Source: Escherichia phage Bf23
Reading direction: 5' to 3' (one strand)
Length of the DNA stretch: 14,504 nt
Sequence record: NC_042564.1
The notes under the pieces are model-generated. The model had not been told where the DNA came from and did no database searches. It was given only the letters and a program-made list of their open reading frames with translations. Shown one piece after another: positions 4,410 through 14,447 of this stretch; position 1 is the stretch's first letter, and each line of letters starts with the position of its first letter. A program made the position numbers and the translations under genes.

Positions 4410-4487
4410 TGGTGGATTGCCTGGGATTCGAACCCAGAACTGACGGATTAAAGGTCCGCTACTCTTATCCAGTTGAGCTAGCAATCC
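4410..4487 (-). tRNA. tRNA-Lys (anticodon TTT)
   Basis: encoded CCA, perfect T-arm ctggg/attcgaa/cccag, perfect acceptor 4414-4420/4481-4487, D-arm GCTC/GAGT, anticodon loop CCTTTAA (C at position 33). Confidence 0.6.
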
Positions 4488-4951
4488 AAATTCTCTACTA
4501 ATAGTTTGAAAGCGTCTAACAGAGGTACTTCAAACCATTCTCCTGATACTTTGTAGTCTTTCAGAAGATTATGTAATGCTTTTTCAGTTCTTCTCTTGTC
4601 CGAGGAGAATCTAAAATGGTATAACTTGTAATCACGATATGGCGAATATGTTTGATAACTAGACAGTCTTTCATTTACGTCTACTGTCATACCTATCTTA
4701 TAGAGTCCAGGCCATGCTGGGTTACCTATTACATATACAAACCCTTCTGTTATAGGGATTTTATGCTCCCTTTTATACTTCAGCAGGTTTAACGCTGCCA
4801 TTCTATAACAGAACTTAAACTCTGAGGATTTTAGTTTACCTTCTTTACCAGATATTTCGTTATACTTCTCCATATACCTACGTATTAAGGAGTCAGTAAT
4901 AGTAAAGTGCTTTGGAAGATCCAGGGCTTGAAGTACACTGTTAATAAGCAT
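4478..4951 (-). CDS. T5orf172-family (GIY-YIG-like) domain protein, 157 aa; putative homing-type nuclease
   Basis: ORF track; motif GFVYVIGNPAWPGLYKIGMTVDVNERLSSYQTYSPYRDYKL typical of the T5orf172 domain; AAGGAAG SD; paralog of 6749-7267; 3' end overlaps 5' end of tRNA-Lys. Confidence 0.8.
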   Translation of the reverse strand: MLINSVLQALDLPKHFTITDSLIRRYMEKYNEISGKEGKLKSSEFKFCYRMAALNLLKYKREHKIPITEGFVYVIGNPAWPGLYKIGMTVDVNERLSSYQTYSPYRDYKLYHFRFSSDKRRTEKALHNLLKDYKVSGEWFEVPLLDAFKLLVENLDC

Positions 4952-6694: not shown

Positions 6695-6772
6695 TGGCGG
6701 TTCCTGCTGGATTCGAACCAGCAACCCTCAACTTAACAAGATGCCGCTCTAACCAATTAGAGCTAAGGAACC
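6695..6772 (-). tRNA. tRNA-Asn (anticodon GTT), tentative
   Basis: encoded CCA, perfect T-arm gctgg/attcgaa/ccagc, perfect acceptor 6699-6705/6766-6772, D-arm GCTC/GAGC, anticodon loop TTGTTAA but two mismatches in anticodon stem. Confidence 0.5.
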
Positions 6773-7267
6773 ATATAAGTCAGAACTAGAGTTAATACGT
6801 TCTAGATATTTACTAAGATCTCTAGAATTTATACTAAACCACTCATGTTCTTTTAAATCTTTGAAATACTGGTGAATTAGTTTTTCACCTTTTCGTTTGT
6901 CAAACCAAAAAGACCAATGCTCTAACTTATAATCCCTATAAGGGGAATAAGTCTGATATTGAGCTAATCTCTCTTTTGGATTTTGACTCATGCCTATTTT
7001 ATACTGATTTTTCCATGCAGGATTACTAATACAGTATACAAAACCTTCAGAAATAGGAAGTTTATTTTCCTGCTTAAACTTTATAAAGGAAAGTGCAGCA
7101 AGTTTTCTCGAATACATAGTATTTGTATTCTTTTTGGTATTACCATTGGTTCCTGAAAGATTTATATATTCTTCCATAAATCTTTGGATTAGTTCTGCAG
7201 TTATATAGAAGGGCTCATTAGTAACAACGCCTTTCTTTACCAAACTATCAAAAACTTTTGTATGCAC
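6749..7267 (-). CDS. T5orf172-family (GIY-YIG-like) domain protein, 172 aa; paralog of 4478-4951
   Basis: ORF track; GTG start with AAGGAAAGG SD; motif GFVYCISNPAWKNQYKIGMSQNPKERLAQYQTYSPYRDYKL; 3' end overlaps 5' end of tRNA 6695-6772; the T5orf172 domain is, as I recall, named after a 172-aa ORF of phage T5. Confidence 0.8.
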   Translation of the reverse strand: MHTKVFDSLVKKGVVTNEPFYITAELIQRFMEEYINLSGTNGNTKKNTNTMYSRKLAALSFIKFKQENKLPISEGFVYCISNPAWKNQYKIGMSQNPKERLAQYQTYSPYRDYKLEHWSFWFDKRKGEKLIHQYFKDLKEHEWFSINSRDLSKYLERINSSSDLYGSLALIG

Positions 7268-10643: not shown

Positions 10644-10759
10644 TTGAATTTTTTAACTTTTTAGAGGAAAATCACAGGATGCTTAAGGGTAGCAGGTAAG
10701 TGGTCAGGACCGAAATTTGTGACCCCACTAAAAATCTGGGGGCAATTTTTAAAGACCCC

Positions 10760-10788
10760 TTGACATTTTAGCCGGGGTAGTATAAAGT
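10760..10788 (+). promoter_or_regulatory. putative sigma70 promoter of the plus-strand cassette (divergent from 10615-10643)
   Basis: perfect -35 TTGACA (10760-10765); -10 candidates TATAAA (spacer 15) or TAAAGT (spacer 17); about 60-nt leader before AGGAGG SD. Confidence 0.55.
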
Positions 10789-10850
10789 ATATGTTATGGA
10801 TGAGTGATCAAAGAGACACACATTTTCTATATACTAGGAGGTGTCAAAAA

Positions 10851-11831
10851 ATGACAGAAGAAGTAGCTAAGAGTCCTGAAACCGTCGCTAGCGTAGCAGC
10901 AGAACTGCATCGTCACGAGGAATCAGATAAGAAAAAGTGGGAGAACGTCAAAGCCTACGAAGAAGAACATCGTGTTCACGATGATAAAGATGAAGAAGAT
11001 GACGATGATGAACATTGTCATAAATATGGAAAACATAAAATGCAAGAACCAGTAAACGTATTTACTAACGGCTTCCCTGGCATGGGTGCATTCCCAGCTA
11101 ATGCAAGTGCTTTCGGTGGAGAAGGTATGGGCCTATTCGGAGCTATCCTAATCGGTGCTCTATTAACAGGCGGATTTGGTGGTTTTGGTGGTTTTGGTCG
11201 CGGTGCTGGTGTTGCCGCTGAAGGAACCGCTGTGGACGCGATCCTTTCTAACCAAGATACTGCAAGTATTCTAGCTGCAATCAATACTACTCGTACAGAA
11301 GCTAATCAGGGCACCGGGGCTGTTCTAAGCGCAGTAAACGGTGTGGGAGCTGCTCAAGCTGCTAGCACTCAGCAAGTTCTGACTACTATCTACGGTACAG
11401 GTGCTAATCTGTCAAACCAGATCTGTGCTGAAACTCGTAACGTTATTCAGGGTCAGTTCGATCTTTCTCGTCAGATGGATCAATCTTTCGCTGCTAACCA
11501 GATCGCACGTGCTCAAGATAAGTTTGACTCTGCTCAGATTGCTTTCCAGCAGTCTATTCAGACTAACAACCAGTTTGCCGCTGTTCAGGCTCAGATGTGT
11601 GCTAACCAGAATGCTATCGAACGTCAGCTTGCCGAATGTTGCTGTGAGCTTCAGACTGCGATCGCTGGTGTAACTACTGCACGTATCCAGGACGAACTGA
11701 ATGAATGCCGTCTGCGCGAAGCAATCGCTGCAGGTAGCGGTGCAAATGGTCAGGTAATCAACCAAATCGCTGTAAGTCTTGGTGCTATCACTCAGACTCT
11801 GGCTGGTCTGCAGGCTAAACTGCCGGCTTAA
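10851..11831 (+). CDS. hypothetical low-complexity protein, 326 aa: acidic His-rich N-terminus, Gly-rich hydrophobic segment, Gln/Ala-rich helical C-terminal region with Cys cluster (ECCCE)
   Basis: ATG at 10851 with AGGAGG SD 9 nt upstream (ORF-track start 10791 lies within the promoter/leader); GGFGGFGGFG segment; opposite-strand ORFs 11018-11284 and 11412-11894 look like antisense artefacts; codons look E. coli-optimal by eye. Confidence 0.7.
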   Translation: MTEEVAKSPETVASVAAELHRHEESDKKKWENVKAYEEEHRVHDDKDEEDDDDEHCHKYGKHKMQEPVNVFTNGFPGMGAFPANASAFGGEGMGLFGAILIGALLTGGFGGFGGFGRGAGVAAEGTAVDAILSNQDTASILAAINTTRTEANQGTGAVLSAVNGVGAAQAASTQQVLTTIYGTGANLSNQICAETRNVIQGQFDLSRQMDQSFAANQIARAQDKFDSAQIAFQQSIQTNNQFAAVQAQMCANQNAIERQLAECCCELQTAIAGVTTARIQDELNECRLREAIAAGSGANGQVINQIAVSLGAITQTLAGLQAKLPA

Positions 11832-11852
11832 AATTAAGGGGAGGAGCCCATT

Positions 11853-12269
11853 ATGAGTAAATATGGTTTTGTAAACAACGGATTTAATCAACAAATGGGC
11901 TCCCAGCAGCCCGTTCCTGGTCTGGATAATCCTTACCTACAACAGTTGCAACAGCATTTAGCAGAAGCGCAACAGATGCAGCAACAACTCCAGCAAAACC
12001 CTGGAAGTGTGAGTCCTATGCAAATGATGCAGCAAATGAGCGGGCAGTCGCAAATGCCTCAACAAATGCAGCAACAGGTGCCTCAGCAGCAAGTTCAGCA
12101 ACAAACCCAACAACCGCAGGTTTCTGCGGAAGGACAGGCAGTACTAGCCCTTTTCGAAGATTTCGCAAAGACAGAGGATGGGAAACAGCTTGTATCACTT
12201 ATGGGTAAGTTTAATAGCTTCTGCCAAAGCCAAGTTGCAAAAGCTCAAAATGGTGGTAATAACTCCTAA
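11853..12269 (+). CDS. hypothetical Gln-rich (prion-like composition) protein, 138 aa
   Basis: ORF track; ATG with GGGGAGGAG SD; 21 nt after the stop of the upstream gene; long Q/M/P-rich tract then short structured C-terminus. Confidence 0.65.
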   Translation: MSKYGFVNNGFNQQMGSQQPVPGLDNPYLQQLQQHLAEAQQMQQQLQQNPGSVSPMQMMQQMSGQSQMPQQMQQQVPQQQVQQQTQQPQVSAEGQAVLALFEDFAKTEDGKQLVSLMGKFNSFCQSQVAKAQNGGNNS

Positions 12270-12278
12270 GGAGGAATT

Positions 12279-12473
12279 ATGTGTTGCAGAAAATCTGTTT
12301 CGTGCTGCCCAATGCCTGTAGCACGTTGTTGCTCTCCAGCAATGTTTACACAAATACCGGCGTTCAATCCCTTTGCCTTTAAGCCTACTCTTATCCTGCC
12401 CCCTAGAGTAGATTTTCAGTCAAGATTGGCCTCCCGTATGGGTGGTTGCTGTAATAAGAGTATATGGTTCTAA
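12279..12473 (+). CDS. hypothetical Cys-rich small protein, 64 aa (four CC doublets)
   Basis: ORF track; ATG with AAGGAGG SD that overlaps the TAA stop of the upstream gene; followed by rho-independent terminator. Confidence 0.55.
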   Translation: MCCRKSVSCCPMPVARCCSPAMFTQIPAFNPFAFKPTLILPPRVDFQSRLASRMGGCCNKSIWF

Positions 12474-12488
12474 AGAACCAAACAATAA

Positions 12489-12524
12489 AGCCCCTAGTCG
12501 AAAGACTTAGGGGCTTTTCTTTTA
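12489..12524 (+). terminator. rho-independent terminator of the plus-strand cassette
   Basis: GC-rich hairpin agcccctagtc / gacttaggggct followed by TTTTCTTTT. Confidence 0.7.
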
Positions 12525-12536
12525 TCTTAAGTACAG

Positions 12537-12576
12537 AAAAGCCCTGCGCTCTCCAGGGAACGCAGGGCTTACTTCG
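12537..12576 (-). terminator. rho-independent terminator downstream of SPFH gene (convergent with 12489-12524)
   Basis: hairpin agccctgcg / cgcagggct; on the minus strand it is followed by TTTTCTGT. Confidence 0.65.
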
Positions 12577-13650: not shown

Positions 13651-14152
13651 TTTAAGTATTTTTAAGAACTCTCGTAAAAACTCTTAAAAATACAGACGAT
13701 ACCGGGAGAGTCATAAGTCTCACTCATTAAGTATTTCAAGACAAAATACAGTAACGTCTATTATTTTCCAGTTTAAGTCAAGGTGACTTAGTGGTTATGT
13801 CCTGCGGTATGCTGAGGACTCGGTTAGGCTAGGGTCATGACTCCCCACCTTTTTGCTGCTACTCAACAGGAGTTATCGCGAATTACCTGTGCTATTGTGC
13901 ACCATTAGTGGCATCTCTCATGCCAGCATTTCCCACTTTGTGGATAGTTTGAAAAACTACTCCGATATGGAGAAAGAACTTCACTATCCTAGAATACCTT
14001 CTAAAGTTCTTCTTTAGCCTGGACATAGTTAAATCGTAATAAAACTATTCAGCAGACTGGTTGGTTAGTCTGGAACCAACTACCGCGTGGTTTAGGCAGT
14101 GCGCAACTAACCTCGGAAGCTTTTACGTTAAAAGCATCAGTTATCCAGTTCT

Positions 14153-14224
14153 TACCGTCCGTAGGATTCGAACCTACATCTTCCACCAGTTACGGCTTGA
14201 TAATACCAATTATACTAGGACGGC
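14153..14224 (-). tRNA. tRNA-like gene, isotype undetermined (possible pseudogene)
   Basis: perfect T-arm gtagg/attcgaa/cctac (14161-14177) and 6-7 bp acceptor pairing (14154-14160/14218-14224) but no recognizable anticodon stem; CCA not encoded. Confidence 0.35.
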
Positions 14225-14447
14225 AGTGTTACTACATAAGTGATTTCCACACCCCACTATTTATAAATTAGAGAAGAGTTTAGGGGAGAGGTTTCAGACG
14301 CCCCATTTTATACGTTCTAGCCACTAACCGGGATTGCCGCCCCCTGTGTACTAGTTTTACAACTAACCCACCGACTCTATTCAGTGCACTCCGGTTGGGA
14401 TTCTGCACTCAGCGTAATCGGCTCGCTGTTCCCTAATTTATGAATAT

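Follow-up and report, generated by a model that had tools for sequence, protein, structure and literature searches.

We describe here a three-gene operon on the plus strand of Escherichia phage Bf23 (NC_042564.1), at positions 10760-12524 of the 14,504-bp stretch of DNA that was analysed (the window). The operon is a real, autonomous tricistronic unit set against the direction of everything around it; it is mobile between phages with otherwise unrelated backbones and is dispensable for lytic growth in the laboratory. Its first gene has a strong codon bias and encodes a protein with an invariant run of three cysteines (CCC). As a sequence feature the cassette is already known: its open reading frames (ORFs), promoter and terminator have been in T5 records since about 2004. 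Viewed as a genetic element, it adds one more case to the phage morons; its proteins are orphan families. With regard to function we tentatively propose, at well short of even confidence, a moron-type accessory operon whose products build a thiolate-rich metal-binding or redox-active complex at the cytoplasmic face of the membrane.

Organization of the operon

The window comes from a T5-like phage, of which it is the tRNA region, and shares 97-98% identity with T5 and the phages closest to it. Apart from the cassette, it runs leftward throughout, as had been claimed from a first reading of the letters (here called the sequence-only reading): all 23 of its tRNA genes are on the minus strand, and so, in the ORF listing of the window, are all the long ORFs outside 10851-12473. 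The three plus-strand ORFs are T5.077, T5.078 and T5.079 of T5, annotated in NC_005859 as hypothetical proteins between "promoter P12" and an "efficient bidirectional rho-independent terminator" (Table 1). In AY587007, gene 1 is split into two ORFs (ORF072 and ORF073), and gene 2 is labelled "kapc, cAMP-dependent protein kinase catalytic subunit," a label since copied into many T5-like records.

Table 1. Features of the plus-strand operon (positions in the window)
Feature	Position	Strand	Basis or remark
Segment missing in cassette-less T5-like phages	10698..12441	.	1744 bp; DT57C and falkor, same junction
Promoter	10741..10788	+	A/T-rich upstream tract, -35 TTGACA 10760-10765, -10 TAAAGT 10783-10788
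Shine-Dalgarno sequence of gene 1, TAGGAGGT	10836..10843	+	kept in alignment of diverged homologues
Gene 1 (T5.077 homologue, 326 aa)	10851..11831	+	ORF, selection, PHROG 8119, codon adaptation index
In-frame ATG, Met64 (MQEPVNVF)	11040..11042	+	SD-like GGA(A/G)AA upstream; possible 263-aa form
Gly-rich hydrophobic segment MGLFGAILIGALLTGGFGGFGGFG, putative membrane anchor	11127..11198	+	KD19 = 1.72; throughout family
CCC motif, Cys263-Cys264-Cys265 codons	11637..11645	+	invariant in family alignment
Gene 2 (T5.078 homologue, 138 aa)	11853..12269	+	variable P/Q/M-rich N-terminal part, conserved C-terminal domain EGQAVLALFEDFAKTEDGKQLVSLMGKFNSFCQS
Gene 3 (T5.079 homologue, 64 aa)	12279..12473	+	Cys-doublet-rich, Pro/Phe-rich mini-protein
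Intrinsic terminator	12487..12524	+	hairpin 12487-12517, then UUCUUUU; "efficient bidirectional" in T5

The signals listed by the sequence-only reading are all present as described: a perfect TTGACA -35, strong Shine-Dalgarno (SD) sequences, a gap of 21 nt between genes 1 and 2, a gene 2 stop codon inside the AAGGAGG of gene 3, and a clean terminator. The promoter (TTGACA, 17 nt, TAAAGT) matches the sigma-70 consensus at 10 of 12 positions, and T5 records annotate the site as P12 or T5P21, of the early class. A consensus promoter scan of the region was not above chance (3 sites found versus 3.6 expected). What makes us take the promoter as real is not that scan but conservation: even in relatives with just 40-75% identity in the gene 1 product, the -35 and the gTAAAGTATA box persist, as does the A/T tract before them. 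The terminator hairpin with its U tract has a folding free energy (dG) of -20.7 kcal/mol and z = -5.6, with none of 200 shuffles equally stable, and in Pseudomonas phage KPP23 a hairpin and a T-run likewise stand 3' of gene 3. With a conserved promoter and a hairpin of this stability, the cassette qualifies in silico as the self-contained transcription unit that had been postulated. An Rfam search of the cassette region yielded nothing above chance.

Selection, distribution and loss

All three ORFs are intact in each of the 12 loci read (12/12). Comparison with T5-like relatives put the ratio of nonsynonymous to synonymous substitution rates (dN/dS) of gene 1 at 0.13-0.15 and that of gene 2 at about 0.10-0.20; with L023, the most divergent comparable copy, gene 3 gave 0.135. 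Judged by these ratios, the ORFs are real genes under purifying selection. One might suppose, given that the cassette is dispensable and often deleted and that its products are of low complexity, that it is decaying foreign DNA whose ORFs have no present function. This is the least probable of the explanations that we considered, and we give it practically no weight: selection acts on all three genes, the ORFs are intact, promoter and SD are conserved, and the trio is kept across backbones that share nothing else.

Synteny in other phages, proposed at the outset as a check, proved to be conserved. The trio occurs in the same order in distant T5-like phages (L008 and L009, with gene 1 40-45% identical), in L021 and L023, and in KPP23 and a near-identical contig. 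It is found as well in a lambdoid phage (L010), where it lies between the Q antiterminator gene and the holin-lysozyme-Rz cassette, on the opposite strand. By tblastn, gene 1 was detected in 221 phage records and gene 2 in 221, with an identical genus breakdown. Scans of IMG/VR returned T5-like phages only, and E. coli prophages searched with the lambdoid copy of the cassette gave no match.

A 1.9-kb query matched 423 phage records at the DNA level; 216 of these cover at least 80% of it, and the rest match only at the terminator and the end of the SPFH gene that converges on the cassette. By this count, about half of T5-like records appear to carry the operon. DT57C (Tequintavirus) and falkor (Epseptimavirus) are homologous to the window up to 10697 and again from 12442 on; the genes on either side are the same, and the SPFH gene remains. 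Both phages retain the last 30 nt of gene 3 (G-C-C-N-K-S-I-W-F-stop), and since GGCC is kept in the lambdoid homologue, we regard this piece as a true remnant. The remnant and the shared junction thus indicate that an ancestor carried the cassette and that the phages now without it arose by deletion. From these comparisons the operon appears to be ancestral in the subfamily, to have been lost repeatedly (or else the deletion allele has spread), and to be under purifying selection where it is present. The foreign origin suggested by the sequence-only reading therefore survives only in part: the trio does sit in unrelated backbones (L010 and KPP23), but among T5-like phages it is ancestral, and the absences share one deletion junction. 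A further deletion comes from the laboratory. The viable heat-stable mutant T5st0 is without T5p067-078, the cassette included, and blastn finds no remnant in it.

Divergence along the cassette is uneven. Compared with L015-L019, synonymous divergence (pS) falls from ca. 0.38 in gene 1 through ca. 0.10 in gene 2 to 0.02-0.07 in gene 3. This pattern suggests recombination with a breakpoint close to where genes 1 and 2 meet or, alternatively, additional constraint at the nucleotide level on the 3' half.

Composition and codon usage

The cassette was thought by eye to be GC-richer than its flanks and compositionally distinct, and the figures bear this out: its G+C content is 0.468, versus 0.374 for the 19 other coding sequences of the window. 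The rise affects every codon position but is largest at positions 1 and 2, where it reflects the Ala, Gly and Gln content of the products; T5 genes that are similarly GC-rich include those for the major head protein (0.447) and ltf (0.466). The GC excess is thus largely a product of amino acid composition and translational selection.

A preference for E. coli-preferred codons had been claimed for the cassette as a whole, but it is confined to gene 1. The codon adaptation index (CAI) of T5.077 is 0.486, third among the 46 T5 genes sampled and exceeded only by the major head protein (0.630) and the D11 single-stranded DNA-binding protein (SSB; 0.554). Moreover, 14 of its 18 Ile codons are ATC, versus 15 of 118 elsewhere. 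Genes 2 and 3 have CAI values of 0.25 and 0.20, with no such bias. The accompanying suggestion of high expression is likewise upheld, by codon adaptation only, for gene 1 and not for genes 2 and 3. The gene 1 protein is probably abundant, and its high CAI implies a product that would be needed in stoichiometric rather than catalytic amounts.

A CAI near structural-gene values, and a composition that is fibrous and coiled-coil-like, could also be those of a virion or assembly component. In line with this, the homologue of gene 1 on another phage contig (L003), one of the short-form proteins described below, has head-tail connector and sheath genes following a few kb downstream. We nevertheless find a virion role scarcely tenable and have rejected it, as it is contradicted by natural and laboratory deletions: about half of natural T5-like phages, and T5st0, make virions without the cassette. 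The early-class annotation of the promoter also speaks against it. Furthermore, proteomics of the T5 particle is reported to have found 16 virion proteins, and gene 1 is not among the major ones that this report names (PMC8624392).

Gene 1 belongs to a widespread CCC family

In the gene 1 product, the N-terminal extension is acidic and His-rich; a hydrophobic segment rich in Gly follows it, and then a long helical domain, rich in Ala, Gln and Asn, that bears the CCC motif. The peculiarities that had been noticed in the translations are all there, namely GGFGGFGGFG and ECCCE in gene 1, the Gln richness of gene 2 (28% Gln) and the four CC doublets of gene 3. A profile search with gene 1 against clusters made at 50% identity retrieved 348 cluster representatives at E <= 1e-3 and 63 at E <= 1e-10. 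Most members of this CCC family, at 240-300 aa, have a short N terminus before the Gly-rich hydrophobic segment, and their long helices are rich in Asn, Gln and Ala. When 37 family sequences are aligned, the three cysteines of the motif are the sole invariant columns; they are also invariant in alignment A1 and at least 90% conserved in a 60-sequence alignment (A3).

That the sequence-only reading could place none of the three products in a known family agrees with all of our searches. Pfam, NCBIfam and PADLOC (the last with its anti-phage defence models at E <= 1) gave no match for any of the three proteins, and a PDB profile search with the gene 1 family returned only nonsignificant matches to HA2, keratin and ClyA. 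Gene 1 and gene 2 do fall into PHROG 8119 and PHROG 7894, both families of unknown function; for gene 3, PHROGs gave no match. For the gene 3 homologues of L010 and KPP23, NCBIfam and PADLOC (at E <= 1 for the latter) gave nothing, and Pfam gave nothing useful for 37 CCC-family members. Searches of the literature by locus tag, accession and topic found no study of T5.077-079 or homologues. AlphaFold2 (AF2) modelling of full-length gene 1 was unusable, with a predicted local distance difference test score (pLDDT) of 47. The core, modelled with the 60-sequence alignment, reached a pLDDT of 66.6, with helices of 37, 104 and 48 residues and values of 70-88 around the CCC.

The short-form members of the family are found on 45-56-kb low-GC phage contigs, one of which (L003) encodes a sheath protein closest to those of Clostridium phages. 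A GTDB scan of 100,044 species genomes gave only five distant matches, in metagenome-assembled genomes of Oscillospiraceae, Lachnospiraceae, Clostridia and Atopobium, and tblastn with the short-form member P0039 against annotated phages gave none. At loci of this Clostridia type (L003 6855-7748; L025 8337-9599; L026 4365-5191; L007 2953-3246), the CCC protein has a 97-aa beta-type protein as a partner in 4/4 cases and a protein of 175-189 aa in 3/4. The latter (phrog_17879) matches Pfam Ferritin at E = 6e-4, which is below the Pfam threshold, and 9 of its 11 PDB profile matches are ferritins (best E = 0.0026); by these profiles it looks like a diverged ferritin. The Clostridia-type unit is a different, equally uncharacterised module.

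Predicted membrane topology and a possible second start in gene 1

Across the CCC family, the hydrophobic segment has KD19 values of 1.1-1.9. Its flanks hold, in total, 14 Lys or Arg residues on the N-terminal side versus 53 on the C-terminal side, and an Arg nearly always follows it. By the positive-inside rule, these charges favour an N-out/C-in orientation of the short form, which would place the CCC in the cytoplasm. Gene 1 of the window has almost no Lys or Arg on the N-terminal side and a single Arg after the segment.

The branch formed by the T5-like, lambdoid and KPP23 proteins carries, in addition, a charged N-terminal extension of 50-79 residues with a conserved HExxD, and many of these extensions have His tracts (e.g., HHYHHHHHEHY). 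In 7/7 diverged long-form homologues there is an in-frame ATG exactly at the start position of the short-form proteins, and 7-10 nt before it stands GGA(A/G)AA, GGAGAA, AGGAGAA or GAGG, even though the encoded residues differ. The conserved ATG and SD-like element suggest a second start, from which a form with a short, uncharged N-terminal tail would be made beside the charged long form; between Met64 and the anchor there are 0-1 Lys or Arg residues, and the long form carries 7-17 upstream. Going by this pattern, gene 1 is probably made as two forms, a long one with the 63-residue extension and a short one from Met64. In this respect it resembles lambda S105/S107, having likewise a (predicted) in-frame second start with an SD-like element and a long form whose additional upstream charges could alter topology. 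Unlike the lambda proteins, it is 326 aa long, has one anchor and a large coiled coil, and does not lie beside the T5 lysis genes.

The possible dual start, in recalling S105/S107, also raises the question of lysis. Gene 1 could be a timing regulator or a membrane-fusing, spanin-like factor whose Gly-rich peptide and coiled coil act like a class I fusion subunit. Several of its neighbours fit such a role: the L010 copy adjoins holin-lysozyme-Rz, a SleB-like hydrolase is encoded 2.6 kb from the cassette in T5, an M15 peptidase gene is 750 bp away in L025, and the L026 copy is ca. 1 kb downstream of an Amidase_3 gene. The layout of gene 1, with an anchor near the N terminus and then a long coiled-coil domain with conserved cysteines, is also that of the lambda Rz inner-membrane spanin. 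In addition, GLFGAI is the start of the influenza HA2 fusion peptide (its first six residues), and the HA2 matches in the PDB profile search begin there; in both proteins, a Gly-rich peptide precedes long helices, and in the short-form relatives of gene 1 this peptide is N-terminal. However, the HA2 matches are not significant (E = 0.02-0.9), and gene 1 has no C-terminal transmembrane segment and no evidence of cleavage or fusion; we treat the match as compositional resemblance, not homology. T5-like phages have their own holin, endolysin, and inner and outer spanins elsewhere (PMC4342426, PMC11664485), and L010 has its own Rz (PF03245). Unlike Rz, the cassette has no outer-membrane lipoprotein partner among its products and has a promoter annotated as early class; T5st0 lyses without it, and the CCC family extends to phages of Gram-positive hosts, which need no spanin. 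A link to lysis is therefore very improbable in our judgement. Spanin identity in particular was rejected: T5-like phages and L010 have spanins of their own, and genes 2 and 3 encode no signal peptide or hydrophobic N-terminal region.

Genes 2 and 3

The gene 2 protein, 100% identical to BF23 FIU71_gp05, contains one conserved Cys. That of gene 3 has eight in 64 aa (12.5%), arranged in an N-terminal MCC, a central CCPMPVARCC and a GGCC near the C terminus. The doublets are conserved across backbones, in that T5-like phages, L010 and KPP23 all retain MCC, CCPMPV-RCC and GGCC. No signal peptide, transmembrane segment or hydrophobic N-terminal region was found in either protein (maximum KD19, 0.45 and 0.85), and with no hydrophobic stretch both products should therefore be cytoplasmic. 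The N-terminal extension of gene 1, gene 2 and gene 3 occur together in every complete long-form locus examined (L022 ends inside gene 2) and in 0/4 short-form loci. From this co-occurrence we infer that the extension is the docking site for both proteins.

The identification of gene 2 as a cAMP-dependent protein kinase (kapc) is rejected, as its 138-aa product gives no Pkinase match in Pfam at E <= 1. A copper role, considered on the basis of a Met-rich stretch in gene 2, was dropped, given that Met richness is not conserved. Gene 2 has no detectable similarity to the Gln-rich neighbour in L025. In the KPP23 record (AB910392; L012 5969-6151), the frame chosen for the deposited ORF072 (64 aa, starting at GTG) is wrong; the true gene 3 is an overlapping 60-aa ATG ORF that begins MCCNQPVPQCC. 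Three annotation errors are thereby corrected, namely the kinase label on gene 2, the split gene 1 of AY587007 and the wrong gene 3 frame of KPP23.

A putative thiolate-rich complex at the membrane

Under the reading that we put forward, host sigma-70 RNA polymerase would transcribe the operon early, from its own promoter, as one tricistronic mRNA that ends at its own terminator. The gene 1 protein, predicted to be plentiful, would sit in the inner membrane via its Gly-rich hydrophobic segment and oligomerize via a coiled-coil domain of ca. 200 residues bearing the invariant Cys triplet. It would exist both at full length, with the charged extension, and as a Met64 form having the architecture of the wider family. 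The gene 2 and gene 3 products, which lack an export signal, would stay in the cytoplasm and dock on the gene 1 extension. The single Cys of gene 2 and the four doublets of gene 3 would then join the Cys triplet in a thiolate-rich assembly on the cytoplasmic face of the membrane. Such an assembly may bind metal or be redox active, and through it the infected cell may be altered, in its physiology or its envelope, with an advantage only in certain conditions. We favour thiolate chemistry because the CCC is invariant in phages of anaerobic Gram-positive hosts, the partners are predicted to be cytoplasmic, and His tracts and a ferritin-like neighbour recur. In anaerobic Gram-positive Clostridia, extracytoplasmic disulfide stapling is unlikely.

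Several points weigh against this proposal. Searches of Pfam, NCBIfam, PADLOC and PDB profiles revealed no homology to metal-binding, redox or membrane families, and the literature searched contains no expression, localization or interaction data on the cassette proteins. The His tracts and Met richness are not conserved among relatives, adjacent cysteines offer poor geometry for chelation of a single ion, and gene 3, being Phe/Pro-rich, is unlike metallothioneins. The ferritin-like signal is weak, falls below the Pfam threshold, and comes from the other branch of the CCC family. With respect to topology, one Arg is thin evidence, and an N-in/C-out long form would have its CCC domain in the periplasm of E. 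coli. The hydrophobic segment itself is short, and Gly-rich in many members; it could be peripheral or fusion-peptide-like and not a transmembrane helix. Finally, the CAI values depend on weights after Sharp and Li (1987); since capsid and SSB top the list, the weights seem to behave sensibly.

The N-in/C-out orientation leads to the main rival of the thiolate proposal, an envelope barrier or superinfection-exclusion system, which we consider possible but rather unlikely. Here gp077 would be a type II inner-membrane protein, N-in, whose periplasmic coiled coils are stapled by interchain CCC disulfides. The resulting dense layer would block the entry of competitor DNA or access to the receptor, or, as PspA or SPFH proteins do, would stabilize the membrane while the long T5 infection lasts. 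Exclusion is a typical job of morons and early T5 accessory genes, DT57C having a Cor-like gene and T5 Llp being annotated as an exclusion lipoprotein. The long form has a positive cluster just upstream of its anchor (HKYGKHK in the window and KYRGKYRRMMKKAKKEGK in L010), as such an orientation would lead one to expect, and the predicted abundance of gene 1 (from CAI) and the convergent SPFH gene also fit. Lambda Rz is an example of an extracytoplasmic coiled coil with Cys staples. On the other hand, an export signal is lacking in two of the three conserved proteins, and the CCC is just as invariant in phages of anaerobic Gram-positive bacteria, hosts without a periplasm. In addition, the SPFH gene stays behind when the cassette is deleted, and PADLOC gives no match.

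A more far-reaching version of the thiolate proposal may also be considered, although we think it improbable. The CCC coiled-coil proteins would in this case be a large, unrecognised family of membrane proteins of phages that infect Gram-negative or Gram-positive bacteria. Gene 1 of the T5/lambdoid/KPP23 branch would yield, from its two starts, isoforms of opposite topology, and these would form a thiolate-metal or redox-switchable membrane lattice with the Cys-doublet mini-protein and, as an adaptor, the Gln-rich protein.

Relation to known systems

In its genetics the cassette behaves like other phage morons (lambda bor and lom, HK97 gp15, T5 llp and the Cor-like gene of DT57C). Like these, it is a self-contained promoter-gene-terminator unit lying against the neighbouring transcription, compositionally distinct, patchy among close relatives and dispensable, and its lambdoid copy in L010 sits at a known moron hot spot, Q-S. 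It differs from them in having three co-conserved genes instead of one and in occurring mainly in virulent phages. Moreover, its presence or absence among T5-like phages results from deletion, not insertion, and its products have no sequence kinship to those of characterised morons.

Small Cys-rich metal binders with adjacent cysteines include metallothioneins, H. pylori Hpn, Cox17 (CCxC) and MerT/MerF (vicinal pairs). Gene 3 is likewise Cys clustered, its partner has His tracts in many relatives, and the Gln-rich gene 2 partner recalls Hpn-like. Unlike metallothioneins and Hpn, however, gene 3 is rich in Phe and Pro and shows no homology to them; His/Met richness is unconserved, and metal binding by the cassette proteins is putative.

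Other features of the tRNA region

On the strand opposite the cassette, a second hairpin (12539-12570) ends the convergent SPFH gene. It contains the PuGCGC consensus (GCGC at 12546-12549), and T5 records place a major single-strand nick, that of the 32.6% site, there, so that the nick falls within the stem of the terminator. Elsewhere in the window, two minus-strand ORFs, 4478-4951 and 6749-7267 (157 and 172 aa), are paralogous, with the common pattern GFVY.I.NPAW..YKIGM...RL..YQTYSPYRDYKL. Each adjoins tRNA genes and is probably a gene of the homing type or similar to T5orf172. ARAGORN predicts a tRNA-Ser with anticodon ACT at 14152-14225 on the minus strand, in a region that T5 annotates as stable RNAX or a pseudo-tRNA. 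In DT57C, the tRNA region holds the Cor-like superinfection-exclusion gene (L028 165-392), and because of this gene, the tRNA region of T5-like phages may be seen as a general landing place for accessory genes.

Significance

If the lattice described above were real, it would be a new kind of phage accessory system, for example, a metal- or redox-gated superinfection barrier or a membrane-stabilizing coat, and it would be without counterpart among described morons, spanins, holins, and defence or anti-defence systems. Going by its codon usage, gene 1 is apparently among the most strongly expressed genes of these phages, yet it has no assigned function, and the CCC family to which it belongs is unannotated everywhere. 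The operon is carried by about half of the T5-like phages, a group widely put forward for biocontrol and therapy, and T5 and BF23 themselves are classical models. Nature has provided a precise deletion allele of the operon, and its phenotype is therefore directly testable between near-isogenic phages.

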